From: a candidate division WWE3 bacterium RIFCSPHIGHO2_01_FULL_40_23
GTDB taxonomy: Bacteria; Patescibacteriota; WWE3; UBA101185; 2-01-FULL-41-18
Reading direction: 5' to 3'
Length of the DNA stretch: 64,000 nucleotides
NCBI GenBank assembly: GCA_001772615.1
Contig: MEUZ01000003.1
Span: 350,433 to 414,432 of the forward strand
The notes beneath the pieces are model-generated. The model made no database searches. It was not told the origin of the DNA and saw only the letters and a program-made list of their open reading frames with translations. The first letter of the stretch is position 1; each line of letters opens with the position of its first letter. Below, piece after piece: positions 5,593 through 23,975 of this stretch. Made by a program: the position numbers and the translations under genes.

Positions 5593-6210
5593 TTAAATTA
5601 GGCTCATCTGCTTGTCATCTTTCTTTTTTATCCCTTTGTCTTCAAAATCTTTAAGGCCCATTATCATCACTTCCTTTATTTTCTTAAACTCCGTTCTTAG
5701 AATCTTCTCAACTGCGGGGTTTCGCAAAGCAGCGGCCGGGTGATATAAAGGAAAAATTATTTTATTTCCCACTTTTTTTGGGACCCCGTGGTCTTTAGAT
5801 ATTTTCCCATCCTTGTCAAAAAACTCAAGGGCAAACCTCCCAAGCGGCACAACCACTTTTGGACTGATTGCTCTAAGTTGTGAGTCAAGGTAAGGCGAGC
5901 AAGCCCTGACCTCATCAACCATAGGATCCCTATTTTCTGGAGGTCTATGTTTGATTATGTTTCCAATCCACACATCTTCTCTTTTTAAGCCGATGCTTCT
6001 TAACATTTCCTCAAGCATTTTACCCGCCCTTCCGACAAAAGGTCTTCCCTGCTGATCTTCATTGTATCCAGGAGCCTCGCCTATAAAGGCAATCTGTGAG
6101 TTAGGGTTTCCTTCACCTGGAACGGCGCGAGTAGCTGATTTACATAGTCTGCATTTTTTGCAGGAAACAACAGCTTTTTCAATTTGCCTTAAAACATCTA
6201 CTTTATTCAT
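5593..6210 (-). CDS. Uracil-DNA glycosylase, family 4
   Basis: 205 aa. Contains CKKCRLCKS...GEGNPNSQIAFIGEAPG...GRPFVGRAG, a family-4 UDG Fe-S type signature. Confidence 0.8.
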   Translation of the reverse strand: MNKVDVLRQIEKAVVSCKKCRLCKSATRAVPGEGNPNSQIAFIGEAPGYNEDQQGRPFVGRAGKMLEEMLRSIGLKREDVWIGNIIKHRPPENRDPMVDEVRACSPYLDSQLRAISPKVVVPLGRFALEFFDKDGKISKDHGVPKKVGNKIIFPLYHPAAALRNPAVEKILRTEFKKIKEVMIMGLKDFEDKGIKKKDDKQMSLI

Positions 6211-6890: not shown

Positions 6891-6967
6891 AAATACAAAT
6901 GAAGGCATGCTTACTTTCGTACTGGAAGAAGAGGTTTAACTTCCACAGGTCTGTTGCTAAAATAATC

Positions 6968-8122
6968 CTTATGGAAAGCTATACTGCCATAGTTGTAGGA
7001 GGGGGTCCATCAGGTCTTGAATGCGCGCGGGAACTTAGCAAGCTCGGGCACAAAGTTCTGGTTTTAGAAAGATCAAAAATACCTGGAGAGCCAAACTTCT
7101 CTACGGGGGGAACACCTTTAGAAACGATTAATGAATACAACATTCCACTAAGCGTAACAAAAGATTATTTCAATAAAATTTCCCTAATAACTAATATTGA
7201 GAAGGCTGTTTTTACAAATGATTTTCCCGCAGGGTATGTTCTTGATTTCAGAGAGTTTAAAAAGCATCTTGCCGATGAAATTAGAAAAGGTCATGGATGG
7301 ACTGTTTATGGGTCTGACATCACAAATGTAAAGTTTGAAAGAGGCAAGATCAAAAGCCTTTCATTCGTGGTGGACGGACATCAAAAAGAGGTGTCCGCAA
7401 AGTACTTTATTGACGCAACGGCTAAGGAAGGAGCTTTAGTTTCAAAACTTGGATTAAGAAATCATAAAAACCATAAAACTACAACCGGCATTGAATACAT
7501 TGTTAAAGTTAAACTAGACGATTTTTACAAAAACAACCTCTGTATCTTTCTGGGGGGAAAGTACCTTCCCGACGGTTACGCCTGGGTTTTCCCTTTCGGG
7601 ACTGATACTTATAAAATTGGCGTGATTGTGTATGACGGGAAGGAAAGCGACTTTCAAAAACCTGAAGGGGGATACCTTGACTCTTTTTTACAATCAATTT
7701 CGAAGAATGGATTTGAGATACTTGAAAAACATGGAGGAACGCTTATTTTAACAAACGGTTTTAAGAGAAACGTTTGGGGAAACATAATATCTGTCGGCGA
7801 TAACGCGGGTATGTGCAATCCGTTATTCGCCGAAGGGATCAGGCACGCGCTTTTCAGCGGGAGATTAGCCGCAAGAATCATAGATAAAACGGAAAGGGGA
7901 AATTTAGAAATCAACCACCTGCTTAATTACGATGCACAACTAAATAAATACAAAGGAAGCTCATGGGGTATAGGCAGGTTCTTTGCAGACCTCCTATATC
8001 ACACTAAAAACGACAAGCTAAAGGACCTCCTGACAAAAAGGGTTTCCAAGCTTTCATGTAATGACGTGATAGACACCGGCTTTGAATACAATTTCTCCTC
8101 ACTCCTTAAACTCCTCAAATAA
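6968..8122 (+). CDS. FAD-dependent oxidoreductase, geranylgeranyl reductase family
   Basis: MESYTAIVVGGGPSGLECARELSKLGHKVLVLER is a Rossmann dinucleotide-binding N-terminus. About 385 aa. The alternative upstream ATG at 6899 is less likely. Confidence 0.7.
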   Translation, partial: LMESYTAIVVGGGPSGLECARELSKLGHKVLVLERSKIPGEPNFSTGGTPLETINEYNIPLSVTKDYFNKISLITNIEKAVFTNDFPAGYVLDFREFKKHLADEIRKGHGWTVYGSDITNVKFERGKIKSLSFVVDGHQKEVSAKYFIDATAKEGALVSKLGLRNHKNHKTTTGIEYIVKVKLDDFYKNNLCIFLGGKYLPDGYAWVFPFGTDTYKIGVIVYDGKESDFQKPEGGYLDSFLQSISKNGFEILEKHGGTLILTNGFKRNVWGNIISVGDNAGMCNPLFAEGIRHALFSGRLAARIIDKTERGNLEINHLLNYDAQLNKYKGSSWGIGRFFADLLYHTKNDKLKDLLTKRVSKLSCNDVIDTGFEYNFSSLLKLLK

Positions 8123-8160: not shown

Positions 8161-9171
8161 TTACACAATCATGCTAGCAACACTTTCGAGTGTGCCATCC
8201 GGAAGCGTAAGAGCCTGAATAAACTTTCCTGCAAGCGGTAGGCGTGAAGCTGCAATCTGATGAAAAGGATCAATCAGGCTGTTGACCACACAACCACAAT
8301 GGGAGCAGTCCGCTTCAGGGCCAAAGATACACTGCCCCTTGGGCTTCCCGTGAAAGTCGTAGGATATAACCCTGTTGGCGATTGCACACATTGCAGGCGA
8401 ATACGTAGCAGTATGATCCGGATGCAAAGTGCCAATTTGCGCTTCACTCATATTGATCCTCGCACCCATCTGCCGAAGCTTGAGGAGAAGCTCCACAAAG
8501 TCTGCTCTTTGCGCATCGGTCGGAGCCCAATCGGGAAGGCTTTCCCCAATGGGAGGTGTGGCGGTACTAAATACCATCCCATCAATCCCAGGGAAACCAT
8601 CCAGCTGCCAAATCAACCTTTCCATCTCTCCCGCGTTGGCGCTCATAAGCACCGTGTGGCTGAAGACTGGGAAAACATGGCCTAAAGCACTAGCTTTCTC
8701 ACGCCCTAAAAGTATTTGGCGTCTTGCCCTATCAGCCAAACCTGGAACGCCCCTCAAACGGTTATGCATCTCATCAGGCCCATCAATACTCACAACGTAG
8801 GTCACGGGAGATTGCCTTCCATTCTTTACGAAAGTTCCCATCTCGTAGAAGAAGGTTGTAATAATCCATGTGATCGGCGTGATCCCGACAACATGATGAA
8901 GCTCTTTCCTTCGCGCTCCAGGTTCACCTCCTACTATGGTCAGGTGAACCGCCCCTGCTTTAACTGCATCCGAGATAATCTTTACCCAACCCTCAATGGG
9001 GAGCCCGTGAGGGCCCGATTTAATCACCGGCACGTAGCAATCAGGGCATTCCATAGGGCAAACCTGGGTTATCTCAACCGATAAGCCCATGTACCCATTA
9101 GCCCCAAGTCTTGAAACCGGAGTAGCCAGCCTTGCCAAAGTCATAAAGTTATGCCAGCTTGACATCTTCAC
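8161..9171 (-). CDS. Radical SAM protein with a C-terminal auxiliary Cys cluster (twitch/SPASM-like)
   Basis: CPMECPDCY has CxxxCxxC spacing. The C-terminal cysteines lie in MCAIANRV, GQCIFGP and ADCSHCGC. Markedly higher GC than neighbouring genes. Confidence 0.65.
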   Translation of the reverse strand: MKMSSWHNFMTLARLATPVSRLGANGYMGLSVEITQVCPMECPDCYVPVIKSGPHGLPIEGWVKIISDAVKAGAVHLTIVGGEPGARRKELHHVVGITPITWIITTFFYEMGTFVKNGRQSPVTYVVSIDGPDEMHNRLRGVPGLADRARRQILLGREKASALGHVFPVFSHTVLMSANAGEMERLIWQLDGFPGIDGMVFSTATPPIGESLPDWAPTDAQRADFVELLLKLRQMGARINMSEAQIGTLHPDHTATYSPAMCAIANRVISYDFHGKPKGQCIFGPEADCSHCGCVVNSLIDPFHQIAASRLPLAGKFIQALTLPDGTLESVASMIV

Positions 9172-9648: not shown

Positions 9649-10938
9649 ATGCTTTCTCTGATAATCGTTAAGGCCGTGCTTATCTGTATCCGCACATTTA
9701 CAAAATATTCCGGTACTGCTCTTCCCGGTCTCATTGTAGAAACCTACTTTCCCAAAACCTTTGAAAAACTTTTAAGAAATATAAAGCACATGGTTCTTGT
9801 TACAGGAACAAACGGCAAAACCACAACTTCAAGAATGCTTTGCCATCTGCTTAAAAAAAATAATGTGGGTTTTATTTCAAATCCGAGTGGTTCCAATTTA
9901 TTAAGAGGGATTGCATCAACTCTAGCCGAAAATTCGGACATTGCAGGAAATATAAAAACTAATCTGGCTGTTTTTGAGATAGAGGAGGCAAGTCTTCCGA
10001 AACTTACAGGTATAATAAGGCCCGACATAATTATCGTAACAAACATTTTCCGGGACCAGCTTGATGCATACGGTGAAATTGACAAAACGTACCAATACCT
10101 AAAAGAGGGCATAGAAAAATCCGATAACCCAAGATTAATCCTAAACGCGGATGATGAAAGGGTGAGAAGCTTAAGAAATTTTTCAAAAAATGAGGTGGAT
10201 CTTATTTCTTTTGAAAAAGCTTACCTAAGGCATATAAAATTTGAGAATAGAGAAAGTAAAAATACTGCCACCAATATTAAAGCATGTGAGATTAGAAATG
10301 TTGAGGTTCATAAGGACTTAGGTATTTCCTTTGATCTTTCTTACGGTGAAGGAAAAATTAAAAAGATTGCAACTTTATCCCCCGGTTTTCATAACGCTTT
10401 TAACGCATCGGCCGCTATTATCAGCTTTGACTCTCTCTCAAAACTTGGGGTAGTTAAAGCTAATAAACCTGATACCAGCTTAAGCGATTTCAAACCCCCA
10501 TTTGGAAGAGGCGAAATTATTAAGGTAGGAAATACTAAATTTCAGATCCTTCTTTTTAAAAATCCTGCCGGAGCAAACCTTAATCTTCATCTTCTTGAAA
10601 GTGTACAGAAGCGTGAAGCGGTATTTTTAATTCTTAATGACAACACGGCAGACGGGAAAGATGTTTCATGGATCTGGGATTGCGATTTCACTCTTTTGAA
10701 AAATCTTAACTTCAAAAACGTTTACATCTCGGGAACAAGAGCCTTTGATCTGGCCTTAAGGCTAAAGTATGAAGGAATTGAAGTTTCCCAAGTAGATGGG
10801 AACGCACATAAAATACTTGATTTAATTCTTAAAGAAAACTTTGATATGGTGTATGTACTTCCAACCTACACAGCAATGCTTTCAGTCAGGGGTTTACTAT
10901 CACAACATACTGGAGTTAAAGAAATTTGGAAACACTAA
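9649..10938 (+). CDS. murT: Lipid II isoglutaminyl synthase subunit MurT (Mur-ligase family with DUF1727-like C-terminus)
   Basis: Contains MVLVTGTNGKTTTSRML, a Mur ligase P-loop. 429 aa. Immediately followed by the GatD partner. Confidence 0.8.
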   Translation: MLSLIIVKAVLICIRTFTKYSGTALPGLIVETYFPKTFEKLLRNIKHMVLVTGTNGKTTTSRMLCHLLKKNNVGFISNPSGSNLLRGIASTLAENSDIAGNIKTNLAVFEIEEASLPKLTGIIRPDIIIVTNIFRDQLDAYGEIDKTYQYLKEGIEKSDNPRLILNADDERVRSLRNFSKNEVDLISFEKAYLRHIKFENRESKNTATNIKACEIRNVEVHKDLGISFDLSYGEGKIKKIATLSPGFHNAFNASAAIISFDSLSKLGVVKANKPDTSLSDFKPPFGRGEIIKVGNTKFQILLFKNPAGANLNLHLLESVQKREAVFLILNDNTADGKDVSWIWDCDFTLLKNLNFKNVYISGTRAFDLALRLKYEGIEVSQVDGNAHKILDLILKENFDMVYVLPTYTAMLSVRGLLSQHTGVKEIWKH

Positions 10939-10951
10939 GGAGAATAAGGGT

Positions 10952-11716
10952 ATGAACCTAAAACTAAACCACTTATATTCCCAAAACCTTAACATTTACG
11001 GAGATCTTGGAAATATTATTGCCTTTAAATACAAGGCAGAAAAAGCGGGGATAAACCTTTATGTGTCTCACACAGAAATCGGTGAAGAAATAAGCGAAGC
11101 CGATATTTACTTTATAGGAGGCGGGCAGGATCAAGACCAAATCCTGGTCTATGAGGATCTTCTTAGACACAAAGGCTTCATCCTAAATGAAGTTGAGAAA
11201 GGCAAAGTTTTTCTTCTTATTTGTGGAGGCTACCAGCTTTTTGGCAAATACTTTGTGGATGGAGAGGGGAATGCGCTAAAGGGGCTTTCCATTCTTGATC
11301 TTGAAACTAACTCACCGGATAGCAAAGTTTCATCCCGCTGCATTGGAAATATTGTTGCTCAATTAAACAGTGGGTTTATTAAACACTGGGACGTTGATGC
11401 ATCTTTTTCAAAATACATAGTTGGTTTTGAAAATCACGGAGGGCAAACTAAACTTCTAACTGACCAGGTTAAACCGATTGGAGAGGTAATCAAGGGCTTT
11501 GGCAATAACTCAACCGACAAAGTTGAAGGCTGTTTTTACAAAAACATCATCGGATCATATATGCATGGGTCCTTCCTTCCCAAAAACCCCCACATCACAA
11601 ACGCCATTTTAAAAAAAGCCCTCTTGCAAAAGTACAATGATGTAACTTTTGAAAACCTCTATGAAGGGGAGGAAAAGAAAGCTCATCAACTGATCCTCAT
11701 GAGATCTGGATTTTAA
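10952..11716 (+). CDS. gatD: Lipid II isoglutaminyl synthase glutaminase subunit GatD (CobQ-like GATase)
   Basis: NIYGDLGNIIAF...IYFIGGGQDQDQ...LICGGYQLFGKYF matches the GatD signature. RBS aaggag lies upstream of the ATG at 10952. Confidence 0.8.
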   Translation: MNLKLNHLYSQNLNIYGDLGNIIAFKYKAEKAGINLYVSHTEIGEEISEADIYFIGGGQDQDQILVYEDLLRHKGFILNEVEKGKVFLLICGGYQLFGKYFVDGEGNALKGLSILDLETNSPDSKVSSRCIGNIVAQLNSGFIKHWDVDASFSKYIVGFENHGGQTKLLTDQVKPIGEVIKGFGNNSTDKVEGCFYKNIIGSYMHGSFLPKNPHITNAILKKALLQKYNDVTFENLYEGEEKKAHQLILMRSGF

Positions 11717-11729
11717 AGCCGTAAGAGAA

Positions 11730-12797
11730 TCAAATAGTTCCTCGGGGCAAGTAATTCTTTAAATTCTGGGCGTTAATATTAACCGATTTGCTTTTACCCT
11801 CCACAATCTCTCTAGCAACTTTTCTTGCTATTGCTTCAAGGGTTCTATTTAAACTTCTGATACCGGAATCAAAACCCAAAGGTCTTATGACCTGCCCCCA
11901 AAGACCGGGATCAATTGTAAGATCCTCCTTTGTCAGTCCCGCGTTAGCTAAAACTTTAGGCAAAAGATAGTCCCTGGCGATAACCTCCTTTTCATAATCC
12001 GTGTATGAAGGCATTTTTATAATCTCCATTCTGTCAAGAAGCGCCGTAGATAAAGTCCCAAGCCCGTTTGCACTGCAGACAAACAAAACTTCAGATAAAT
12101 CAACGGGATAATCAATATAATGATCCCTGAAAGAAGTGTTTTGATTAGGGTCCAAAATTTCAAGAAGGGTTGCCATCACATCCTGTCTTAACCCAGTCTC
12201 ACCGCTTGACTTGTCTATTTCATCAAGAAGGATCAAAGGGTTCATTACACCTGATCTTACCAAAGCTTTTATAATCTGGCCCGGCTCCGCTTCAGGAAAG
12301 ACTTTACTTCTTCCTCTTAACTCCAGTACGGAGCCAATACCTCCCATTGCAATCCTTACAAACTTTCTGCCAAGAGCATCCGCAAGAGATATGGCAAAAG
12401 TAGTTTTCCCGATGCCCTGCAGACCTACAAACAAAAGTATCGGAGATTTTGAAATCGCTTCCTTTACTGATCTTCCCTTAAGTATCGCGGTTGATAAATA
12501 CTCAAGTATTCTATCCTTCACTTCCTCAAGCCCAAAATGATTGGCATCAAGAAGCTTTTTAGTCGCAGAAAGATCAAGATTGTCGGTCGTTCTTTTGCTC
12601 CAGGGGATGCTGACAAGAATATCAATATATCTTGCCAAAGTGTCATACCCTTCGGTATAACCCCCAAGCTTTGCCATCCTGTTAAGACGGTCAAGCATCC
12701 CTTTTACTCTTTTTAAAAGTTCAGGGGGCATCCCGACCGAAGTATTTACCCGATCCGAAAGTTCCTTAAGTTCCTCAAAAACAAATTCTTCTGCCAT
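11730..12797 (-). CDS. Lon-like AAA+ ATPase module without the N-terminal LAN domain or the C-terminal protease domain
   Basis: LDANHFGLEEVKDRILEYL, Walker A GLQGIGKT, Walker B LILLDEIDKSS and the sensor region NTSFRDHYIDYPVDLSEVLFVCSANGLGTLSTALLDRMEIIKM all align with the Lon AAA+ module. The protein ends at 355 aa with no Ser-Lys protease domain. Confidence 0.75.
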   Translation of the reverse strand: MAEEFVFEELKELSDRVNTSVGMPPELLKRVKGMLDRLNRMAKLGGYTEGYDTLARYIDILVSIPWSKRTTDNLDLSATKKLLDANHFGLEEVKDRILEYLSTAILKGRSVKEAISKSPILLFVGLQGIGKTTFAISLADALGRKFVRIAMGGIGSVLELRGRSKVFPEAEPGQIIKALVRSGVMNPLILLDEIDKSSGETGLRQDVMATLLEILDPNQNTSFRDHYIDYPVDLSEVLFVCSANGLGTLSTALLDRMEIIKMPSYTDYEKEVIARDYLLPKVLANAGLTKEDLTIDPGLWGQVIRPLGFDSGIRSLNRTLEAIARKVAREIVEGKSKSVNINAQNLKNYLPRGTI

Positions 12798-12803
12798 AAA
12801 TGC

Positions 12804-13739
12804 CTAATTTAATACGTAACTATTCTTATTTCTTTTAACCATCACATCAACAATTTCCGAAAACCTGGATTTATATAAAGGACTTTTCTTTAACTCTGAA
12901 AGATCCTCGCTTGCCGATTCAGTTAGCAGAAGGATAAGAAGCTTTCCCTGCGAGGGAACGGAGTTTTTTGCGGTTGCGTACTTTGAATTTAATGAAAAAC
13001 TTAAAATGGTCTTGCCCTTTGCTCTTTTTACATCCTCAAAAACTTCCGAGTCATTTGAGACAACCAAATAATCATCAACAAGCCGCGCTGAAAAACTGGA
13101 CTCTTTTGTAGCTTCCGCAAGAACACTTAGCTTTTCATTATTCTTGGCCTTTGATAAAAATCCCCATACTCTTTTTCGGCCGGAGCCATTCTTATCCTTA
13201 ATTCTTGAGAATATTACATACTGTCTATCAAGAAGAGTTTCGACATCAGACAGCTTAAGGTCGGTTTTTGGAACCGATGTGGAAAGCGGTAAATTCGTAA
13301 AAGAAGATAAAAATTTAGAAATATCAAATCCCTCCACATACAAATCAACATCGGGCGGAATCAGAGAAGATAGGGACTGATTGCCAAATGAGGCAAGGGG
13401 AAGATCAGCGTCCGTTTTTAATATCCTCTCATCAACCAAGACCTCTTTAACGGGAGTGCTTCTTTTTTTTGTGATTGCATTAAGCCTTGATAAAAACATA
13501 GCCGAAGCAGTTAAAAGGATAATTACCAAAATGAAAACGATGTAAGAAGTTTTAAGTTTTAAAATATCTTTTGAGAATTCTTCCTTAACAATAAAAAGCG
13601 GGGGTGTTAAATGACCTTTAAGGTAAGTCCTGACATCGGCTGAGGTTAGCTCCTGCGGAAGCTTCGCACCGCATCTGAAACAAAAGTAATTACCGACAAT
13701 TCCAAGTCCTTCTCTGCAAACAGGGCAGGTTCTTTCCAT
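12804..13739 (-). CDS. Zinc-ribbon membrane protein, hypothetical
   Basis: CPVCREG...CFRCG is an N-terminal zinc ribbon, followed by one TM helix and a roughly 230-aa extracytoplasmic region. It sits 7 nt upstream of the Lon-like gene. Confidence 0.55.
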   Translation of the reverse strand: MERTCPVCREGLGIVGNYFCFRCGAKLPQELTSADVRTYLKGHLTPPLFIVKEEFSKDILKLKTSYIVFILVIILLTASAMFLSRLNAITKKRSTPVKEVLVDERILKTDADLPLASFGNQSLSSLIPPDVDLYVEGFDISKFLSSFTNLPLSTSVPKTDLKLSDVETLLDRQYVIFSRIKDKNGSGRKRVWGFLSKAKNNEKLSVLAEATKESSFSARLVDDYLVVSNDSEVFEDVKRAKGKTILSFSLNSKYATAKNSVPSQGKLLILLLTESASEDLSELKKSPLYKSRFSEIVDVMVKRNKNSYVLN

Positions 13740-13798
13740 AAGAGTATTCTAACAAAGACGAAGAGACCAACAAATAGACTTAAGTTACGATCAAAACC

Positions 13799-15988
13799 TC
13801 AGCGCCTTGGAGGCCTTCCGCCAAAACCTCTTCTTCTATTGTCATCAAAGTTTCGCCTTCTTTCAAAACCGCCCTTCGTATTACCTCCATTCTCACTTAA
13901 CGTTTTTTTGGAAAGGCTTATCTTGCCCGAAGAAGGATCAACATCCAAAACCTTTACAGTAACCTTATCTCCTTCCTTTAACACATCTCTTACATTGGTC
14001 ACATACTCATTTGAAAGTTCGCTCACATGAACAAGACCTTCTTTCCCGGGGGAAATCTCCACAACGGCGCCAAAATCAAGGATCTTTTTTACTGTACCCT
14101 CGTAAACTTCACCGGGCATAATAACCCTGGTTAATGCTTCTACCATTGACTTTGCCTTATCCATACCCTCGGATGAAGGAGCGGAAATTGAAATAGTTCC
14201 GTCATCCTCAATCCCAAGCGTTGCACCTGTTTTTGACTCAATATCTCTAATTGTCTTCCCTCCGCTTCCAATGACAAGCCCTATCTGTTCAGGCTTAATT
14301 TTTATGGTGATCATTTTAGGAGCATACTCGCTAAGAGCAGTCCTTGGAGATGGTATAGCCTCATACATTTTGTCAAGAATTTTAAGTCTTGCTCTTTTTG
14401 ACTGCTCAACAATTTTTGGAAGAAGGTCCAAAGGAACTCCTTTAGTCAGCTTGATATCAACCTGAACGGAGGTCACACCTTCTCTTGTACCAGTCATCTT
14501 AAAATCCATAAAACCGTAAGCATCTTCCCTGTACGCTATATCGGTTAAAATCACAAACTCTGTTTCTTCCTCGTTTGCAATAAGTCCTATGGCAATTCCG
14601 GCAACGTGACCTTTTATCGGAACCCCTGCATCCATTAACGCTAAAGAAGAACCGCAGGTGGAGGCCATAGATGACGAACCGCTTTGAGATAACACCTCGC
14701 TTACAAGCCTTACCATATAAGGAAATATGCTCTTATCAGGAAGAACAGGATACATAGCTTTTTCGGCAAGCATCCCATGACCGATTTCACGCCCGCCGGG
14801 CGCTCCTCCAAGCCTTTTGGCAAGCTCCCCGACCGAATATTGAGGCGCGTTGTAATGGTGTATATATCTTTTTGATTCCTCGCCGTACATACTTTGAATT
14901 AACTGTTCCAAAGAAGGAGAGCCAAGCGTGACAACCGTCAAAGCCTGCGTCAGGCCTCTTGTAAATAAGGCACTTCCGTGTGTTCTTGGAAGGACCGAAA
15001 GCTCAACCTGCACATCTCTTATATCCTCAACACCTCTTCCATCAGATCTTTTCTTTTCCTCCAACACAAGATGGCGCATCTCATCGGTTTCAACTTTGTA
15101 AAATGCTCTTGCCATTTCATTTTTCGTATATTTTCCTTCAAAAGCGTTAAAAAGTTCCTCCAAAAGTATCTGCTCTTCAGCCTGCATTTCGGTTTTTTCA
15201 AGATTCTTCTGCATCATCTCCCTAACCCTTTTTCCTATTGTGTTTCTTACATCCGTTACAAGCTCTGAAGGCAAGGCTTTTGACACATACAAATACTTAT
15301 CATTCCCAACCTCACTTGCAAACTCTTTAAGAAAAGAGGAAAGATCTTTTGTATTTTCATTTACAAAATTAACGGCTTCCACAATCTTTTCTTCCGAAAG
15401 ATCGGAACATTGTGCCTCCATCGCAAGAAATTTCTCATTTATTAAGGAGACCACAAGATCCATCGTGGATTCATCCAAAGCCTCAACTGAAGGGTTTAAA
15501 ATAAAGTTTCCCTCTTTATCTATTCCGACTCTTGAGGTGACCATAGGGCCGTTCCAAGGAATATCGGATGAGTGAAGCGCAGCCGAGGTCGCAATCATTG
15601 CGAGGACTTCGGGGTCTGAATCCTTGTCAATTGACAAAACCGTAACCACAACGTTTATTTCATCCTGATAATCCTTAGGGAATAAAGGGCGTATGGCGTG
15701 GTCTATCAGCCTGCCTGCAATTCTTGCTTGATCAGTGGGTGCACCTTCTCTTTTAACCCACCTTGAAGATTTTATTAAACCCCCCGCGTAAAGCTTTTCT
15801 TCATAGTTTACTGTCAAGGGAAGAAAGTCTACCTCGGTTTTAGGGGTTCCTGAAACCACCGCTGCAATGACAACGGTGTCACCCCATCTCGCGTAAACCG
15901 CGCTATTTGCCTGCTTTGCAAGCTTTCCGGTCTCAAGGCTTAAAGACCTTCCCGAAAACATCATTTCTTTTTTTACATATTTATTCAT
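13799..15988 (-). CDS. pnp: Polynucleotide phosphorylase
   Basis: 729 aa with two RNase PH domains, KH and S1 domains, and an Arg/Gly-rich C-terminal tail. Confidence 0.9.
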   Translation of the reverse strand: MNKYVKKEMMFSGRSLSLETGKLAKQANSAVYARWGDTVVIAAVVSGTPKTEVDFLPLTVNYEEKLYAGGLIKSSRWVKREGAPTDQARIAGRLIDHAIRPLFPKDYQDEINVVVTVLSIDKDSDPEVLAMIATSAALHSSDIPWNGPMVTSRVGIDKEGNFILNPSVEALDESTMDLVVSLINEKFLAMEAQCSDLSEEKIVEAVNFVNENTKDLSSFLKEFASEVGNDKYLYVSKALPSELVTDVRNTIGKRVREMMQKNLEKTEMQAEEQILLEELFNAFEGKYTKNEMARAFYKVETDEMRHLVLEEKKRSDGRGVEDIRDVQVELSVLPRTHGSALFTRGLTQALTVVTLGSPSLEQLIQSMYGEESKRYIHHYNAPQYSVGELAKRLGGAPGGREIGHGMLAEKAMYPVLPDKSIFPYMVRLVSEVLSQSGSSSMASTCGSSLALMDAGVPIKGHVAGIAIGLIANEEETEFVILTDIAYREDAYGFMDFKMTGTREGVTSVQVDIKLTKGVPLDLLPKIVEQSKRARLKILDKMYEAIPSPRTALSEYAPKMITIKIKPEQIGLVIGSGGKTIRDIESKTGATLGIEDDGTISISAPSSEGMDKAKSMVEALTRVIMPGEVYEGTVKKILDFGAVVEISPGKEGLVHVSELSNEYVTNVRDVLKEGDKVTVKVLDVDPSSGKISLSKKTLSENGGNTKGGFERRRNFDDNRRRGFGGRPPRR

Positions 15989-16102
15989 TTTTAACTCGGG
16001 AAAATAAAGTTTAGAGTCAAGAGTAAGAGGCCTAAATCCGGATGCAACAAAGTTACATTCAGGTTTGCACCTCCTATCTTAGTAAGTCTTAACGGTAATA
16101 CT

Positions 16103-16372
16103 TTATTTCTCCAGTTTTAACTTTTCTACTATTTTTTTGTATCTCTCCTCATCCTTCTTCTTAAGATAAAGAAGGAGTCTTCTCCTTTTATTGACCATCT
16201 GCAAAAGCCCTCTTCTTGAGTGTACATCTTTTTTATGATCTTTAAGATGGGTTGAAAGGGAGTTTATCCTTTCGGTTAAAAGAGCAACCTGCACCTCTGG
16301 TGATCCCGTATCGCCTTTATGCGTCTTGTAGGATTCTATGATTTTGGTCTTTTTCTCTTTAACAAGCGTCAT
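16103..16372 (-). CDS. rpsO: 30S ribosomal protein S15
   Basis: 89 aa with a typical S15 sequence, positioned upstream of pnp. Confidence 0.9.
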
Positions 16373-16430
16373 ATCTTACTGTTATTGTAGCAACAAAAAC
16401 CTACAATGGCAACCGAAACAAATGGGAAAT

Positions 16431-17093
16431 TTACCTATCTTCCACAGAAGAGGCGTTATAAGTTATACCTGCTAAAAGGGCTTTAGCCGTCTCCTTGTCC
16501 ACTTTATAGTGCCAGGCGGCTAATTTATAAAGAACAAGCTGGCATAAGCCTCCGCTTTCAGGTTCAATCACATTTAAAGTTCCGTAGTTTTCATTCTTTG
16601 TGGAATTATCAATGTTGATTAAAAAAATCTTCTTTATTTCTTCTTTATATTCGTTAAACACTTCCCCGTGATCCGTAAGTTTTGGCGCTCCAATTGAGAT
16701 AACTAGATCATAATCAAAGCCTGCTGTGGAAAAGCCGACTCTTGAAGTGTCAAAATCTTTGGAAACAGGGTGCAGGATAATTTTACAGACATTACCCTCA
16801 ATAACGTAATTTACTTTTTCTATATGAGTTCCTCCATAATCAATGCTGACAACAAGATCCCTTGTCCCCTTAACCGGAGTGACTTCATCTTTAGAAATAA
16901 GATTTACCGCCTCAAACGGAATCGGATAAGGGTACATAAAAGAAACATTTTTCCCGGAGTTTTTCAGCGATCTGTAAAGGGCAATTCCCGCGCATAAACC
17001 GTCCATACCCGAACCTCTGGTGGGAATCACAACAGCGTTTTTAGCCTCATATATTAAATCTGTGACCTGTTTTCCTTCTTTTAGTACAAGCAT
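16431..17093 (-). CDS. DHH-family (NrnA/CnpB-like) domain protein, probably catalytically inactive and lacking the DHHA1 domain
   Basis: Aligns with the NrnA N-terminal domain (VVIPTRGSGMDGLCAGIALY; DLVVSIDYGG). The DHH motif position reads INIDNS. Only 220 aa. Confidence 0.5.
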   Translation of the reverse strand: MLVLKEGKQVTDLIYEAKNAVVIPTRGSGMDGLCAGIALYRSLKNSGKNVSFMYPYPIPFEAVNLISKDEVTPVKGTRDLVVSIDYGGTHIEKVNYVIEGNVCKIILHPVSKDFDTSRVGFSTAGFDYDLVISIGAPKLTDHGEVFNEYKEEIKKIFLINIDNSTKNENYGTLNVIEPESGGLCQLVLYKLAAWHYKVDKETAKALLAGITYNASSVEDR

Positions 17094-17259
17094 AAAATTT
17101 GGGCAAGTAACTCACGGTAATATCAGAAATGACAGGGCGAAGAATGAGTGGGGCTTATTTTACCTTGTAAAGACTATAGGGTCAAGCTTAGCTTTTGACT
17201 GTAATCAAATTAAAAGATAGGATGAACGCAAGAGGGGTAAGTTGAGAGGAGAGTTACGT

Positions 17260-17520
17260 ATGGCAAAAAAAACATGGCCAAGGACGCCTGAAGTAAACGA
17301 AATGTTTGTCGTGGCACTGGATCCGGATGAGGCTTATTCGTTTTTCGTTGAGGGCTCATCTGAAGCTGTTGAGCTGGAAAGGGGCACCCATCTTAAGTTC
17401 GTAGGTATACAGAAAACCCCGGGAAGAGGCACCTATTATGTTTTTGCTAACGGGGGCAGGCGATTGGTGATAGAAGATTTCTTAGCGGAAACACACGTTC
17501 ATCCTGTAAGGGAGCAATAA
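17260..17520 (+). CDS. Hypothetical small protein (higher GC)
   Basis: MAKKTWPRTPE..., about 86 aa, with no recognisable motifs. Followed by a hairpin terminator. Confidence 0.4.
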   Translation: MAKKTWPRTPEVNEMFVVALDPDEAYSFFVEGSSEAVELERGTHLKFVGIQKTPGRGTYYVFANGGRRLVIEDFLAETHVHPVREQ

Positions 17521-17522
17521 AT

Positions 17523-17558
17523 CAGCCGGGAGAGAAATAAAAGACCTACCCGGCTTTT
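17523..17558. terminator. Intrinsic terminator between convergent genes
   Basis: Stem agccggg / cccggct, then TTTT. Confidence 0.5.
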
Positions 17559-17561
17559 AAC

Positions 17562-19034
17562 TTACAAAACCTCAATTATATCTTTCACTTTAATATCTTT
17601 AAAAATAGGATTTAGAAGAACACCGCACTCAACGTCTTTTCCAACAACATTAACCTCTTCTTTTCCACGCCTTAAGTGCTTTATTTTGGCCGTAAAAATA
17701 GGCTCCTCCGCACTCTCCCTGAAGATTGAAATTTTGGCACCCTGCCTTAAAGCCCCGCCTAAAACTTTGCACCCTGCTACAATATCACCCGATTCAAGAG
17801 GGAATACTTTAAGCACTTCAGCCCTTCCTTTTACTTTAACCTCTTCTTTAAACAAAACCTCTTTAAGAAGGCTCTCAACTTCATCCAGAAGCTTATAAAT
17901 AATGGTGTATGCTCTGACTGTCACTTTCATGCTGTCAGCAAGCTCTAAGACCTTTGAGGGAACTTTAGTATTAAAACCAAAAATTAGACCTTTAGATGAA
18001 TGGGCAAGAAGAACATCGGATTCCGATATATCTCCCGTGGCTTTATGTAAAAATTTAAGCCTGGCTTCGGGAGTCTCAAGCTTCTTTAATGAACCTTCAA
18101 GAGCCTCCAAAGATCCGTGTGCGTCCGCTTTCAAGATTAAATTAATGACCTTTGTAGAGTCTAAAACCTTTTCCTCCTCGGGCACGGTTTCTTTTTTTAC
18201 ATCCAAAAGATCTTTATTCTTAACGCTCACAAAGACTTCACCCGCGGGTGGGACTATAGGGAACCCCAAAACCTCAATGGGATCCGATGGAGTAGCGTCT
18301 TTCACCTGTGTTCCGGTAAAATCAAAAAGAGATCTAACCTTGCCGGAAGTTTTATAGGTGTATATCTCATCGCCCACTTTTAAAGTTCCGTTTTTAATAA
18401 TCGCGGTAAAAAGCGGCCCTTTTTTCGCATCAAGCTTAGACTCAATTATTACCCCTTCCAGATCACCCTTTGGGTCGGCTTTAAGCTCAAGTATTTCGGA
18501 TAAAGCGAGGATTGAGTCTAAAAGCTTATCAACACCCAATCCTGTTTTAGCGGAAACAGGAACACAAATTACGTCACCTCCGAATCCTTCAACCAAAACC
18601 TCATTTTCCGCAAGCTGCTGCTTCACTTTATCGGGATTTGCCTGCGGGAGATCCATTTTATTTATAGCAACAATAATTTGGGAGTTTGCCGCTTTCGCGT
18701 GTGAAATAGCCTCTTTAGTTTGAGGCATAACACCGTCATCACCCGAAACTACGAGAATAACAATATCCGAAACCTTCCCCCCTCTTCCCCTCATTTTGGC
18801 AAAAGCCTCATGCCCGGGAGTGTCAATAAAAGTTATTTTCCTATCCTTATATATAACCTGATAAGCGCCTATTTTCTGCGTAATGCCACCGTGCTCGCCC
18901 TCGGCTACTTTTGACTTACGAATATAATCTAAAAGGGAAGTTTTTCCATGGTCAACATGACCCATCACAGCTACAACTGGAGGCCTTATAAAAGGGTATT
19001 CTTTTTTTGAGGTTAAAGCACTTTCTTTTTTCAT
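17562..19034 (-). CDS. infB: Translation initiation factor IF-2 (short form)
   Basis: VVAVMGHVDHGKTSLLD G-domain. 490 aa, lacking the long N-terminal region. Confidence 0.9.
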   Translation of the reverse strand: MKKESALTSKKEYPFIRPPVVAVMGHVDHGKTSLLDYIRKSKVAEGEHGGITQKIGAYQVIYKDRKITFIDTPGHEAFAKMRGRGGKVSDIVILVVSGDDGVMPQTKEAISHAKAANSQIIVAINKMDLPQANPDKVKQQLAENEVLVEGFGGDVICVPVSAKTGLGVDKLLDSILALSEILELKADPKGDLEGVIIESKLDAKKGPLFTAIIKNGTLKVGDEIYTYKTSGKVRSLFDFTGTQVKDATPSDPIEVLGFPIVPPAGEVFVSVKNKDLLDVKKETVPEEEKVLDSTKVINLILKADAHGSLEALEGSLKKLETPEARLKFLHKATGDISESDVLLAHSSKGLIFGFNTKVPSKVLELADSMKVTVRAYTIIYKLLDEVESLLKEVLFKEEVKVKGRAEVLKVFPLESGDIVAGCKVLGGALRQGAKISIFRESAEEPIFTAKIKHLRRGKEEVNVVGKDVECGVLLNPIFKDIKVKDIIEVL

Positions 19035-19045
19035 TTGCTTTCTTT

Positions 19046-20155
19046 CTATTCATTGCCGTTTTTTTCTTGATCTTTTACTTCTTCTGACTCGGGCGTTTCT
19101 TGCGCGCTATCTTCACTGACCTTCTCTTTTTTATCTTCTTCCACCTCTGTTTTTTCCTCCACAGGACTCTCAACTGCGGGTTCCTCCTCACTTAAGGAAT
19201 CTACTTCAGGCTTGGCTGTATCGTTTAATCCCTTTATATCTATTCTCCACCCCGTAAGTTTTGCCGCAAGCCTTACATTCTGGCCTTCTTTTCCTATGGC
19301 GAGGCTTAACTGATCATCAGGAACTATAACCTTCGCTTCTTTATTGTCCCTATCTGCGATCACATCCGCAACCTTGGCGGGGGAAAGGCTTGCCGCAATA
19401 AACCTGTCAATTTCAGGGTTATATGGAATTATATCTATTTTCTCACCGTTTAACTCTGCAATAATAGCCTGAACCCTGACACCCTTCTGCCCGACACAGC
19501 TTCCAACCGGATCAACATTGGATTCTTTGGATGAAACTGCGATTTTTGTCCTGCTTCCAGGCTCCCTTGAGATAGCTTCAACCCTCACAACTCCCTGCGC
19601 GACTTCAGGGACTTCCATTGCAAAAAGATTACTAACAAAAAGGGGATCGGCTCTTGAGACGATTATTTCAAGGCCTCTTCCACCTTCTCTTATATCTTTT
19701 ACCAAAACTTTAAGCTTCTGGTTTAAAGAGTATTTTTCGGTTTGAATCTGCTCCGACTGCGGAAGGATACCTTGCGCCTTTCCAAGATCAACAATCACAA
19801 CTCCCTTTTCCATTCTGAAAATATGCGCATTAACAATTGTCCCGATTTTTTTCTTGAAGTCGGCAAACACAGTTTCCTTTTCACTTTCTCTTATTTTTTG
19901 CAAAATTACCTGTTTTGCGGTTTGAGCTGCAATCCTTCCAAAACCGGAAGGGGTTACATCCTCACCACCTTTATAAATTTTTGCTTCGCCCGTGTCGGAA
20001 TCAACGGTTGCCGTAATATCCTCGGTAGTTGAACCGTAATCTTTTTTATAAGCGGATACAAGCGCCGCTCTTATTGTTTCCAGAACCGACTCAACAGGAA
20101 TGCCCCTTTCGGTCGCAACCTGATTTAAAGCTGCATTAAATTCCGATATTGCCAT
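19046..20155 (-). CDS. nusA: Transcription termination/antitermination factor NusA
   Basis: N-terminal domain, S1 and two KH domains, plus an acidic C-terminal tail. Lies upstream of infB. Confidence 0.9.
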   Translation of the reverse strand: MAISEFNAALNQVATERGIPVESVLETIRAALVSAYKKDYGSTTEDITATVDSDTGEAKIYKGGEDVTPSGFGRIAAQTAKQVILQKIRESEKETVFADFKKKIGTIVNAHIFRMEKGVVIVDLGKAQGILPQSEQIQTEKYSLNQKLKVLVKDIREGGRGLEIIVSRADPLFVSNLFAMEVPEVAQGVVRVEAISREPGSRTKIAVSSKESNVDPVGSCVGQKGVRVQAIIAELNGEKIDIIPYNPEIDRFIAASLSPAKVADVIADRDNKEAKVIVPDDQLSLAIGKEGQNVRLAAKLTGWRIDIKGLNDTAKPEVDSLSEEEPAVESPVEEKTEVEEDKKEKVSEDSAQETPESEEVKDQEKNGNE

Positions 20156-20304
20156 AAAAAGAAAGGTGGGATTTTAGCCCACCATTATCAAAAATACTTC
20201 CTGTAAGTTATCACAAAGAGGGCGCCAAATCAAGAAGCAGCGGATATAAAATGGCTTTCAAAAGGAAAAGCCAAAGGCGTAAGCTAAATGTATAATAATG
20301 GAAT

Positions 20305-20700
20305 ATGGTTTCTACCCTTGAACAAACCTTCCCAGCAACTTACGAAAGAGATTCCGACAATGTGATAGCGCAGATAAAATCCCTTGAAGAAGAGATGATG
20401 AAAGAACACAAACTATCAGTAACGGCTCAAAAGCCAAATCCTCTACTGGAGTTTGCTGGGGGGGATAATAGTAACGGCCTAAGCGACAGAGTTGACATAT
20501 CCCTATCCTCAAGAGAAAAGAATCTTGATGCTATAGATATCTTGAAAGCGGTGAGACAAATTGAAGTATTGGTTACCAGAAACAGAGGGCATATTGACAA
20601 AAGTGCCTTCAATTCTCTTAACGATCTTGTGTATCAAAAATTAACGGAGGCCTTAACGGAAGGTGTTGACTTTAATCTCAAATTTACAGCAGAGTTTTAA
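20305..20700 (+). CDS. Hypothetical protein
   Basis: 131 aa. A TATAAT box ends about 7 nt before the ATG, so the transcript may be leaderless. Confidence 0.4.
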   Translation: MVSTLEQTFPATYERDSDNVIAQIKSLEEEMMKEHKLSVTAQKPNPLLEFAGGDNSNGLSDRVDISLSSREKNLDAIDILKAVRQIEVLVTRNRGHIDKSAFNSLNDLVYQKLTEALTEGVDFNLKFTAEF

Positions 20701-20744
20701 TATCTCCATTGACACCATACTGAAACCATGGCTATGATTTATTA

Positions 20745-21182
20745 ATGGCTTTACTGGATAAGATTAGGGAATTTGCAAAAACTATTCCGGCCGAAGTTAA
20801 AGAGAGTAAGGATACATACACACTGGAGTTTGTCCTCGCGGAAAGAAAAGCCTTCCTTACAAAACAGAAACTCACATATACGGCGAAATTTAAAATTGAT
20901 GAAAGTAGTAAGGAACTAAGATTTACGGAAATGTTAAAAGAGACAGGCATTGGTCTCTCAAGCGGGGATTCGGATATGAGTCCCGGCTTTGGCTTTAAAG
21001 CCGAGAGTTACAACACATCTTCAGGAGCAAGGGAGGGCACAATCGAAGAGCAGTCTAAAATCTTTGGCGAAAAATATTCTTATAACTTTGATTACTCTTC
21101 CGTCAGAAAAAAACTGGAGGAGCTATCAAAAGAAGAAAGCTATAATTTTAAATACGTATTAACCGGTTCAGGTCTACAGTAA
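20745..21182 (+). CDS. Hypothetical protein
   Basis: 145 aa with no motifs. Confidence 0.4.
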   Translation: MALLDKIREFAKTIPAEVKESKDTYTLEFVLAERKAFLTKQKLTYTAKFKIDESSKELRFTEMLKETGIGLSSGDSDMSPGFGFKAESYNTSSGAREGTIEEQSKIFGEKYSYNFDYSSVRKKLEELSKEESYNFKYVLTGSGLQ

Positions 21183-21200
21183 AGACCAAGGAAAGGATTT

Positions 21201-21680
21201 ATGCTTAACTCAAAAGGCATCGCGGGAAAAGTTATTTTAATAACATGCGGGGGCCTCCTTGTTCTGTTTGTTTTATTTATAGCCCTCGTATTTGGCCTTG
21301 CATCTAAAGGCAATGAAGGGCCCATTAAAGCCGCGGAAGAATTCTTAGACACAATGTCTTCAAGAGAGCTTGAAAAAGCTTATTACTCAACTTCCGGTGC
21401 ATTTCAGAAAGAAGTTTCAAAAGATCAGTTTATGGTATTTGCAGAGCAGTATCCCATCCTTGTTAAAAAAGAAAAAGTTTCTTTTTCGCAAAGGTCAACG
21501 AACAATGATACAGCAGTTCTTAGCGGGACAATCACGGGCGACGGAGGCAAAAAATCCCCCATTACCATAAACCTTGTGAAAGAAGGGGAGGTATGGAAAG
21601 TACTTAACTTAAGCCTAAGAGAAGAAGACGTGCCTAAGGACGATTTAGACACCGATTCATTTGACACTTCTTTGGACTAA
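21201..21680 (+). CDS. Membrane-anchored hypothetical protein
   Basis: N-terminal TM anchor followed by a soluble domain. Confidence 0.45.
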   Translation: MLNSKGIAGKVILITCGGLLVLFVLFIALVFGLASKGNEGPIKAAEEFLDTMSSRELEKAYYSTSGAFQKEVSKDQFMVFAEQYPILVKKEKVSFSQRSTNNDTAVLSGTITGDGGKKSPITINLVKEGEVWKVLNLSLREEDVPKDDLDTDSFDTSLD

Positions 21681-22618
21681 AGTAGCTTTCTATATTCCTC
21701 CAAAAGCTTCTTTTGTTCCTTTGAAAGCTTTTGAGGAATAATAACAAACAATCTCACAAACATGTCACCTCTCTGTGTGCTTCTTAATCTTGGCATGCCT
21801 TTTCCTTTAATTCTAAATTCGGTGCCGGGCTGTGTGCCTTGCGGAACTCTCATCCTCGTTACGGATTCTCCTGCTCCTGAAAGGGGATCAACAACGGGTA
21901 TTTCAACCTCATCCCCAAGGATTGCCTGAACAAATGAAACTTCCTTGGTCACATAAATGTCATCACCGTGCCTTTGAAAAACTTTATGGGGATAAATTCT
22001 TATCGTTATATGAAGATCTCCTGGAGGAAGCCCACTAGGACCTTCTTCACCGTAGCCCTCAAACCTTAATTCATTTCCATCCCTTATTCCCGCGGGAATT
22101 TTAATCTTTAACCTCTTGCCGTTAATATTTATTTCTTCCTCCCTTCCCCTAACCGAATCGGCAAAAGATATTGTCATCTCATAATCAAGATTTTTGCCTT
22201 TTCTTGGCCTCCTTGAACCCCCAAATCCCCTAAACCCAAAAACCTGCTCAAAAATGTCAAAGGGATCAAAGTCCTCCCCAAAGCCTTCAAAACCTTGACC
22301 GCCTGTTGAATAAGTATAGGTAAATGGACCCCACTGCCCGGCTCGCTGCCCCCCGAAACCGCCAAATGGACCCTCTCCGGGAAATCCTCCGTAACCCGGT
22401 TGAGCCGTGCCATAGGTATCATACATTTTTCTTTTTTGCGGATCTGACAAAACCTGATACGCTTCGTTTATCTCTTTAAACTTGGCCTCCGCTGCCGTTT
22501 TATCTTTTGCAACATCGGGATGGTGCTCTTTTGCCAGCCTTTTATAAGCGGCTTTGATTTCTTCTCCCGAAGCGTTTTTTGAAATTCCTAAAATTTCATA
22601 ATAATCTCTTTGAGCCAT
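21677..22618 (-). CDS. dnaJ: J-domain chaperone DnaJ (type II, no CxxCxGxG zinc-finger repeats)
   Basis: J domain with HPD (YYEILGISKNASGEEIKAAYKRLAKEHHPD), a G/F-rich linker and C-terminal substrate-binding domains. Confidence 0.85.
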   Translation of the reverse strand: MAQRDYYEILGISKNASGEEIKAAYKRLAKEHHPDVAKDKTAAEAKFKEINEAYQVLSDPQKRKMYDTYGTAQPGYGGFPGEGPFGGFGGQRAGQWGPFTYTYSTGGQGFEGFGEDFDPFDIFEQVFGFRGFGGSRRPRKGKNLDYEMTISFADSVRGREEEININGKRLKIKIPAGIRDGNELRFEGYGEEGPSGLPPGDLHITIRIYPHKVFQRHGDDIYVTKEVSFVQAILGDEVEIPVVDPLSGAGESVTRMRVPQGTQPGTEFRIKGKGMPRLRSTQRGDMFVRLFVIIPQKLSKEQKKLLEEYRKLL

Positions 22619-22640
22619 AGTAAAATGTATTTTACATCAA

Positions 22641-22678
22641 AAATAAAAAAGGGCGTCCGACTTAAAGCCAAACGCCCC
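22641..22678 (-). terminator. Intrinsic terminator downstream of the small membrane ORF
   Basis: Reads ggggcgt..acgccc followed by TTTTTTATTTTT on the minus strand. Confidence 0.55.
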
Positions 22679-22703
22679 AAAGTTTCGGGTGCACACTTTC
22701 CTC

Positions 22704-22922
22704 TCAAGGTGCTACCGGGGCTTTTGGAAAAATAAAAGCCGCCAAAGAAAGGGCGAGCGAAAAAAGTAGGGGTGCAATGAGGGCCCTCACTATTTCTTCA
22801 AAATCCCAGCTATGCCCCGTTATCCAATCGGCAGTAAAGCTTCCAAGCATTACAAAAGAGAGGAAAACGAATGTGACTATAAAGCCAAACGCCGCTCCCG
22901 TGAACCGAAGTCTAAGGTTCAT
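22704..22922 (-). CDS. Small membrane protein, hypothetical
   Basis: 72 aa with two TM helices. Confidence 0.4.
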   Translation of the reverse strand: MNLRLRFTGAAFGFIVTFVFLSFVMLGSFTADWITGHSWDFEEIVRALIAPLLFSLALSLAAFIFPKAPVAP

Positions 22923-23103
22923 CTTAAATCTCCTTTCTTCTCTACGCCGATTGTAGCAGATAACGTTTACTAATTCATTTTTCCATTATGGGAATGTAAA
23001 AAGTGCTAAATTCGGCACCTGCATTTTTGCAATTTATAGATAGGAAATGTTAACATTTACCAACGCACAGGAGAAGCTAACCAAACTAAAGAGGAGAGGA
23101 AAG

Positions 23104-23475: not shown

Positions 23476-23592
23476 ACTACACACAAGCCCTGTCTTTTAA
23501 AAGCGGGGCTTTTGTCCCCCATTTAAACTCCCATTGATGACGGTAAAGGCATTATGATAAAATAGGGATTAGATAAACGAAAGGAGAAGGCT

Positions 23593-23895: not shown

Positions 23896-23924
23896 CACCT
23901 TCAACGGCTACCGACAAGAAATTC

Positions 23925-23953
23925 AACCCTGATATCAAACGTCAGGGTTTTTT
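23925..23953 (+). terminator. Intrinsic terminator
   Basis: Stem ccctga / tcaggg, then TTTTTT. Confidence 0.6.
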
Positions 23954-23975
23954 ATTCCTACAATTTCAAACGGAT

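Follow-up and report, generated by a model that had tools for sequence, protein, structure and literature searches.

Can the motor of a Lon protease exist in nature without the protease? According to a 2022 paper from the Lon structural field, every Lon chain has an A domain and, after it, a P domain (PMC9569914). The question is raised by a gene in a stretch of 64,000 nucleotides from the candidate division WWE3 bacterium RIFCSPHIGHO2_01_FULL_40_23 (contig MEUZ01000003.1, positions 350,433 to 414,432), and this whole stretch is called the window hereafter, with all positions counted from its first letter. The gene, at 11730-12797 on the minus strand with an ATG start, encodes a 355-residue Lon-derived AAA+ protein, here called the ATPase. 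Directly upstream on the same strand lies a gene for a membrane protein with a putative zinc ribbon, here called the zinc-ribbon protein. A model that read the letters alone had described these two open reading frames, and both were found where it had placed them. This sequence-only reading took the first product for a Lon AAA+ module lacking both the LAN domain and the protease domain. Is that description correct, and if so, what could such a protein do?

The answer to the first part is that the gene encodes a genuine stand-alone LonA-derived AAA+ module without protease and LAN domains. In a Pfam scan the 355-residue protein was matched by AAA (E value 2e-16) and by Lon_lid (1e-10, residues 285-338), and by neither Lon_C, the S16 domain, nor LON_substr_bdg (PF02190), so the hidden Markov model (HMM) check of this protein came out as the sequence-only reading had it. 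The TIGR00763 profile, 'endopeptidase La', matched over positions 254-574 of its 795 (E value 3e-99, 333.6 bits), and in a search of PDB sequences the Bacillus subtilis Lon entry 3m6a aligned with query residues 9-351 (2e-77). The scores lie under the curated equivalog cutoffs, with 333.6 against 608.05 bits for TIGR00763 and 252.5 against 891 for NF008053.

The predicted structure gives the same picture. The AlphaFold2 (AF2) model of the ATPase, made from a 40-sequence alignment with a predicted local distance difference test (pLDDT) of 83.5, starts with three helices, which are followed by a Rossmann-like alpha/beta core and a lid made of helices. The three-helix part covers residues 8-63 (12609-12776; this and all further features of the two genes are on the minus strand), with helices at 8-19, 25-44 and 48-63 as assigned by DSSP on the model. 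It is the counterpart of the helical bundle preceding the AAA+ module in LonA, the 3m6a alignment beginning at residue 9. The segment LDANHFGLEEVKDRILEYL is found at residues 82-100, and the LDxxHxGL motif, which the sequence-only reading labelled a substrate-sensing helix, belongs in the AF2 model to helices 76-86 and 91-110, directly ahead of the first beta-strand and the P-loop. The lid, or alpha subdomain, spans residues 263-352 (11742-12011) and includes the sensor-2 residue Arg314; the C-terminal end of the protein is a conserved NLKxYLP tail, in which N345, Y/F349 and P351 are conserved. With Foldseek the model superposes on LonA and LONP1 structures across about 345 columns, at template modelling (TM) scores TMq of 0.79-0.86.

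Could the short product be an artefact? A canonical lon gene might have been shortened by a frameshift, a misassembly or recent decay, and the unusual length is the one observation that favours this view. To find what such events might leave behind, S16 domains and LonA N-terminal regions were compared by tblastn with the window and 83 related loci, and no remnant was found (best E value 0.035). The Pfam-annotated gene lists, which span nearly the whole window, hold no Lon_C, ClpP or HslV. Nor is there room for a protease domain downstream, because the stop codon of the ATPase gene is followed after 13 nucleotides (nt) by that of the convergent gatD. The sequence-only reading had itself named a hidden frameshift as what would refute it and had noted the closeness of gatD, rightly except for the distance, which it gave as 14 nt. 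The tblastn result, the gap to gatD and the identical architecture of the homologues together rule out a hidden protease domain. What is more, the identical gene and locus were assembled in three independent datasets, and there are hundreds of orthologues of the same length, which are monophyletic and, as seen below, conserved above the level of PNPase. We therefore give practically no credence to an artefact or a pseudogene.

How widespread is this form, and did it arise once? When one genome per species was scanned, at least 422 species genomes proved to encode a relative of the ATPase, and the best 80 of these carriers belong to WWE3, Dojkabacteria/WS6, Microgenomates and unclassified Patescibacteria. 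All of the best 120 homologues from the database search have 352-416 residues, with 64-90% identity. Among the collected sequences there are 206 in which fewer than 40 residues follow the AAA+ module and fewer than 60 precede it, and more than 200 homologues share the C-terminal endpoint ...NLKxYLPx. Database names for the family are 'AAA family ATPase' and 'hypothetical protein', and several members bear the misleading names 'Lon protease' or 'ATP-dependent Lon protease'. A neighbour-joining tree of the AAA+ module placed 56 dereplicated truncated sequences, the window ATPase among them, in one pure clade against 71 full-length LonA sequences. The degree of conservation was estimated as the mean identity to the window orthologues over 41 genome pairs. 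It is 63.4% for the ATPase, between 68.9% for ribosomal protein S15 and 52.5% for PNPase, while the DHH protein has 36.7% and the zinc-ribbon protein 24.5%. These sequence comparisons show that the truncated family is monophyletic, vertically inherited and derived from LonA, and that one old event of domain loss was followed by strong purifying selection; the gene is a core gene of the lineages that carry it. The LAN and Ser-Lys protease domains were lost in an ancestor that WWE3 shared with Dojkabacteria and related Patescibacteria.

Some other relatives are also truncated at the C-terminus while having long N-termini. LON_substr_bdg was present in 5 of the 10 that were scanned, and these we take to be fragments of canonical Lon; the extensions of the others had no Pfam match. 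One relative of 548 residues from outside the window, P0157, has a family-like P-loop, GVQGAGKTS, together with a C-terminal extension of 193 residues without Pfam match, which is possibly an alternative C-terminal domain in place of the protease.

How does the ATPase stand to the known Lon and AAA+ systems? With LonA (Escherichia coli Lon, B. subtilis LonA, M. taiwanensis LonA and human LONP1; MEROPS S16) it has in common the three-helix bundle, the AAA+ alpha/beta domain, the Lon lid and the catalytic residues of the ATPase, at an identity of about 38-45%. LonA differs in having the LAN and Ser-Lys protease domains, a GPPG P-loop and canonical pore loops, whereas the ATPase has neither domain, a GLQG P-loop and remodelled loops. 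Since the tests for a protease domain, for an N-domain and for the curated scores all failed, the ATPase is best regarded as a derivative of LonA and not as a member of it. An engineered AAA+ fragment of E. coli Lon, PDB 6n2i, is nearly co-extensive with it (338 versus 355 residues, TMq 0.85 and TMt 0.89, 39% identity). However, 6n2i is a laboratory fragment, while the ATPase is a natural, conserved gene product with a sequence signature of its own.

Other classes of Lon have lost or altered part of the canonical module as well. LonBA is without the long N-terminal region (PMC9569914), and LonC keeps the protease while ATPase activity is absent (PMC13069640). Both differ from the present family in keeping the protease domain. 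LonC is its mirror image, since the family ATPase keeps intact ATPase motifs and has lost the protease. The archaeal LonB has a membrane insertion inside the AAA+ domain and a B-type protease; in contrast, the model of the ATPase has no inserted transmembrane segment, its alignment with LonA is continuous, and there is no protease. FtsH and archaeal LonB could be likened to it conceptually, and only if the zinc-ribbon protein tethers the ring; even so the anchor lies outside the ATPase chain, and no protease domain is present. ClpX and HslU, of the same AAA+ clade, are likewise proteins with a single AAA+ module and no intrinsic peptidase, but the similarity to such proteins is generic to AAA (ClpA, ClpB and others, E values of 1e-3 to 1e-7). 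Note that ClpX binds adaptors and substrates through a zinc-binding domain of the C4 type, while the zinc ribbon here is on a separate membrane protein. In topical full-text searches on Lon in the ultra-small bacteria of the candidate phyla radiation (CPR), or Patescibacteria, and in the WWE3 genome paper PMC3812714, we found no published description of a protease-less Lon ATPase family. A different arrangement was seen in the top-scoring representatives, which are from outside the window (P0122, P0123, P0124, P0128 and others). These multi-AAA Lon proteins of 900-1700 residues have Lon-type AAA+ modules in tandem, two or three of them, and one Lon_C protease domain after the last. In P0122 and P0128 Pfam AAA is matched in three stretches and Lon_C once, with Lon_lid in three stretches for P0122 only.

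Is the motor still intact in the truncated family? To this end, motifs were compared between 204 truncated family members and 71 LonA sequences. The Walker A motif, or P-loop, of the window ATPase is GLQGIGKTT at residues 125-133 (12399-12425), and its G125, G128, G130, K131 and T132 are conserved in 100% of the 204 members. The same holds for D192 and E193 of the Walker B motif LILLDEIDK (residues 188-196, 12210-12236) and for sensor-2 Arg314. Sensor-1 Asn244 and the arginine finger Arg256 (12030-12068) are 100% conserved in both the truncated family and LonA. The machinery for ATP hydrolysis is thus intact by sequence, and the family should be catalytically competent. The two groups have 52 near-invariant positions in common. 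Another 14 are specific to the family, and these are concentrated in functional loops, namely the P-loop, pore loop 1 and pore loop 2. The P-loop signature is GLQGxGKTT in the family versus GPPGVGKTS in LonA: L126 is found in 99% and Q127 in 97% of the truncated members, where LonA has Pro in 93% and 99%.

The pore loops have changed further. Pore loop 1, GRSKVFPEAEPG at residues 162-173 (12279-12314), follows the family consensus G[RK]SK[AV]xPEAEPG and is remodelled relative to GHRRTY[VI]GAMPG of LonA. At position 167 of this loop LonA has Tyr in every sequence (100%), the window ATPase has Phe and the dereplicated family has F41/Y15/L11/N10/E7, which leaves an aromatic residue in 56% of the dereplicated members. 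An acidic residue has become the rule nearby, with E171 98% conserved in the family (M or L in LonA) and D or E at position 169 in 83%. The region of pore loop 2 (residues 197-211, 12165-12209) aligns with a 2-residue insertion and with Leu203 in place of the LonA aromatic; this position is Leu in 82% of the dereplicated family versus F/Y/W in LonA. In M. taiwanensis LonA, Tyr397 and Trp431 at the matching pore-loop positions touch the substrate and are needed for degradation (PMC8503904). Because the catalytic residues are 100% conserved while the pore-loop residues are changed, the motor is intact and the surface that grips the substrate is rebuilt, with the constraint on the classical aromatic paddle relaxed.

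What would such a motor be used for? The explanation we favour, with a probability of roughly 55%, is that the ATPase is a stand-alone, LonA-derived, ATP-driven protein remodeller, a motor of the chaperone or segregase type that performs no degradation itself and to which the zinc-ribbon protein was added in WWE3. The ATPase would assemble into a Lon-like ring, in which ATP would drive the remodelling, unfolding or extraction of client proteins, and no client would be degraded in cis. Across the family as a whole it would work independently of the zinc-ribbon protein. Upstream of its gene, the WWE3 lineage would have gained the gene of a zinc-ribbon membrane protein that is transcribed along with it, and this protein, with its cytoplasmic ribbon, could be a membrane anchor, an adaptor or a client.

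Several points weigh against this explanation. Limited-proteolysis work on E. coli Lon reportedly found that isolated AAA+ fragments are poor at forming oligomers and have little ATPase activity when the protease ring is missing, and for this reason the formation of a ring is an assumption here. The poor conservation of the pore-loop aromatic speaks against a classical processive unfoldase. The sequence-only reading had proposed an unfoldase; that proposal is weakened by a pore-loop-1 Tyr position that is aromatic in little more than half of the members and by the replacement of the pore-loop-2 aromatic by Leu. Also, what the zinc-ribbon protein could do in the system is read only from its adjacency and from a spacing like that of coupled genes.

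The remaining point is the main rival explanation, in which Lon is split: an S16 or other self-compartmentalised peptidase encoded elsewhere would dock in trans under the AAA+ ring. Precedents exist in the HCLR-clade relatives ClpX and HslU, which work with the separate peptidases ClpP and HslV, and the strongly conserved C-terminal NLKxYLP tail could be the docking element. Yet this tail motif is largely common to LonA (Y/F349, L350), where it is the plain end of the lid. No S16 domain was found in the window or within about 6 kb on either side of 80 related loci, and the neighbourhood has no conserved peptidase, the neighbours being pnp, rpsO, udg, nudix, ftsK and sufS. The pore-loop residues for translocation, on which a protease partner would depend, are the ones that are relaxed. 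The relaxed aromatic and the absent peptidase neighbour speak mildly against a split Lon, and on balance we consider it unlikely.

The remodelling explanation leaves a place for the zinc-ribbon protein, and what kind of protein is it? Its gene, at 12804-13739 with an ATG start, encodes a single-pass membrane protein of 311 residues that is fast-evolving and specific to the WWE3 lineage. A spacer of 6 nt (12798-12803) separates its stop codon from the ATG of the ATPase gene; the sequence-only reading had recognised the neighbour and put it 7 nt upstream. It had also recognised a CxxC..CxxC ribbon and one transmembrane helix, in accordance with the C4 zinc ribbon CPVC-x11-CFRC at residues 5-23 (13671-13727), predicted to be cytoplasmic, and with the single hydrophobic segment, a predicted transmembrane helix at residues 58-89 or so (13473-13568; Kyte-Doolittle peak 2.58, AF2 helix 57-89). 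By topology prediction the remaining 220 residues or so, about 90-311 (12807-13472), form an extracytoplasmic domain.

A direct sequence search with the 311-residue protein returned only itself. Its family came to light when the genes that precede the ATPase gene in related loci were inspected, and a profile of the 30 homologues so derived found only 8 more. C5, C8, C20 and C23 are invariant in the 30 homologues, whose mean identity is 24%, and no other position is. The C4 ribbon is a putative metal binder. Pfam zinc-ribbon models match 12-17 of the 30 homologues, all under the gathering score, and the window protein has only a sub-threshold match (DZR_2, E value 0.005). Three relatives match DUF3352 (PF11832) at about the gathering score, over about 80 of the 536 profile positions (about 172-256). 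P0276 with 28.5 bits and P0279 with 27.1 are barely over the cutoff of 26.8, on this short stretch of the profile, and the window protein had no match to DUF3352 in the Pfam scan. Structural comparison did not add a relative. The AF2 model, from 9 sequences, is unusable (pLDDT 49.9), its Foldseek search against the PDB gave nothing better than an E value of 0.039 and a TM score of 0.17, and the profile had no significant match among PDB sequences.

Are the two genes a conserved unit? A neighbour census was made by HMM search of all six-frame open reading frames in the loci with manual checks, and an ATPase identity of 58% was used to divide WWE3-level loci from distant ones. In 33 of the 41 WWE3-level loci (ATPase at least 58% identical) the zinc-ribbon gene directly precedes the ATPase gene on its strand, and it is missing from the other 8. 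Among the 38 loci with an ATPase less than 58% identical, from Dojkabacteria, Microgenomates and others, none has a homologue within 6 kb. The two-gene pair, whose distribution the sequence-only reading had proposed to survey, is therefore not the unit of conservation. Where both genes are present, the gaps between them run from -35 to +22 nt in the 29 resolved loci, which is typical of translational coupling and consistent with co-translation. One locus, L039, has only a short zinc-ribbon remnant (5691-5942, E value 7e-13) between pnp and the ATPase gene, and may capture the loss of the partner gene in progress. As for the ATPase, no partner-specific constraint was found, its conservation pattern being alike with and without the zinc-ribbon neighbour. 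The cassette is thus real and conserved, though specific to the WWE3 lineage, and because the gene is absent from 38 of 38 distant loci the zinc-ribbon protein is a lineage-specific accessory and not an obligate partner.

This census also bears on a further alternative, an obligate membrane-tethered pair. Here the zinc ribbon would bring the ring to the membrane, in the manner of FtsH or LonB, for the extraction or remodelling of envelope proteins, and the ecto-domain may act as a sensor. The same-strand adjacency in most WWE3-level loci, with its short gaps and the 6-nt spacer of the window, fits such a pair, and so do the four Cys kept invariant despite the low mean identity and the predicted topology, which puts the ribbon in the cytoplasm. 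All this is opposed by the absence of the partner from every distant locus and from 8 WWE3-level loci, by an ATPase conservation that is indistinguishable with and without it, and by rates that are far apart (63% identity for the ATPase and 24.5% for the zinc-ribbon protein). A tethered pair is possible inside WWE3, but it cannot account for the whole family, and as a general explanation we hold it to be improbable.

Does the wider gene order tell anything about function? The genes rpsO (16103-16372) and pnp (13799-15988) lie upstream of the zinc-ribbon gene on the minus strand (13799-16372 together). Since pnp is on the same strand and only 59 nt from the zinc-ribbon gene, rpsO-pnp and the zinc-ribbon and ATPase genes are probably in a common transcription unit. 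A scan of 11400-16600 gave no promoter-like site in the 59-nt gap. A weak site (9/12), within the 3' end of pnp, precedes the start codon of the zinc-ribbon gene by 99 nt, and the top site (10/12) is upstream of rpsO, in a scan that was not statistically enriched. On the other side, the murT-gatD pair (9649-11716, plus strand) is convergent with the ATPase gene. Among the related loci, pnp is found at most two genes upstream of the ATPase gene on the same strand in 43, from WWE3 and some Dojkabacteria, and the conserved block reads DHH, rpsO, pnp, the zinc-ribbon transmembrane gene in some, ATPase, nudix in some, udg and ftsK.

One might therefore think of a non-threading ATP switch in RNA metabolism, that is, a ring or monomer acting on PNPase, S15 or ribosome-associated clients. 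The linkage to pnp is in its favour, and the conserved acidic residues D/E169 and E171 in the pore would suit basic RNA-binding proteins. However, the linkage may be nothing but inherited synteny of a housekeeping block, and in many distant loci the place upstream of the ATPase gene is taken by sufS or other genes instead of pnp. We regard this switch as very unlikely.

The 3' side of the ATPase gene was also considered. In most relatives a gene for about 175-215 residues follows after 1-7 nt, and it was tried as a candidate for a split protease; it proved to encode a uracil-DNA glycosylase (UDG) or a Nudix-like protein. In loci L010, L009, L012, L015 and other WWE3 loci, a family-4 UDG gene, a Nudix-like gene or both stand there with such gaps. 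In the window these genes are displaced, a UDG gene being at about 5.6-6.2 kb, and the convergent murT-gatD is in their place beside the ATPase gene. Upstream, the minus strand at 16431-26004 and on toward about 27.3 kb holds hrcA-grpE-dnaK, dnaJ, nusA-infB and DHH ahead of rpsO-pnp. The ATPase gene therefore closes a long series of housekeeping and heat-shock genes that are all read in one direction. Membership in an anti-phage defence system, for example as a BREX BrxL, was tried and ruled out. PADLOC models gave the ATPase only short matches in the P-loop region (DolB, 5e-07, residues 69-151; others above 1e-3), which are generic, and the context of nusA-infB-rpsO-pnp and murT-gatD is one of housekeeping.

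Some other genes of the window should be mentioned. Beside murT-gatD there are a geranylgeranyl-reductase-like FAD protein (GGR_cat; 6899-8122, plus strand) and a faint radical-SAM-like protein (8161-9171, minus strand); such chemistry, of a lipid or isoprenoid type, is unusual in bacteria whose genomes are reduced. A 309-residue gene product at 40571-41500 (minus strand), between pgk and tpiA in a row of glycolytic genes, matches only AFOR_N, the N-terminal domain of aldehyde:ferredoxin oxidoreductase. Two tandem FemAB-family genes and two UvrD-type helicases are at 53525-55375 (plus strand), 46334-48259 (plus strand) and 58460-61519 (minus strand), and one of the two helicases carries a PD-(D/E)xK/Cas4-like nuclease domain (AddB-like).

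What does the ATPase mean for the Lon family and for these bacteria? Lon is defined as one chain joining an ATPase to a protease, and the classes LonA, LonB, LonC and LonBA all retain the protease domain. The present family is a natural Lon motor without N-domain and protease. Its conservation is about as tight as that of a ribosomal protein, and it extends over hundreds of species in a major radiation that is uncultivated. One immediate consequence is a correction of database names for the several members now mislabelled as Lon proteases. Another is that the family offers a natural experiment on the capacities of a lone Lon AAA+ ring, for example chaperone or segregase activity, and lets one test in what way pore loops can be put to new use. 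It is also a pointer to protein quality control in CPR bacteria with reduced genomes. A more speculative scenario, which we think quite doubtful as a whole, is that the ancestral Lon of WWE3, Dojkabacteria and related Patescibacteria became a pure remodelling motor without any peptidase partner, that its pore turned acidic for new clients, and that in WWE3 it was linked through the zinc ribbon to a surface-exposed, fast-evolving membrane protein. If this were true, the cell surface of an episymbiont would have a transmembrane link to protein remodelling in its cytoplasm.

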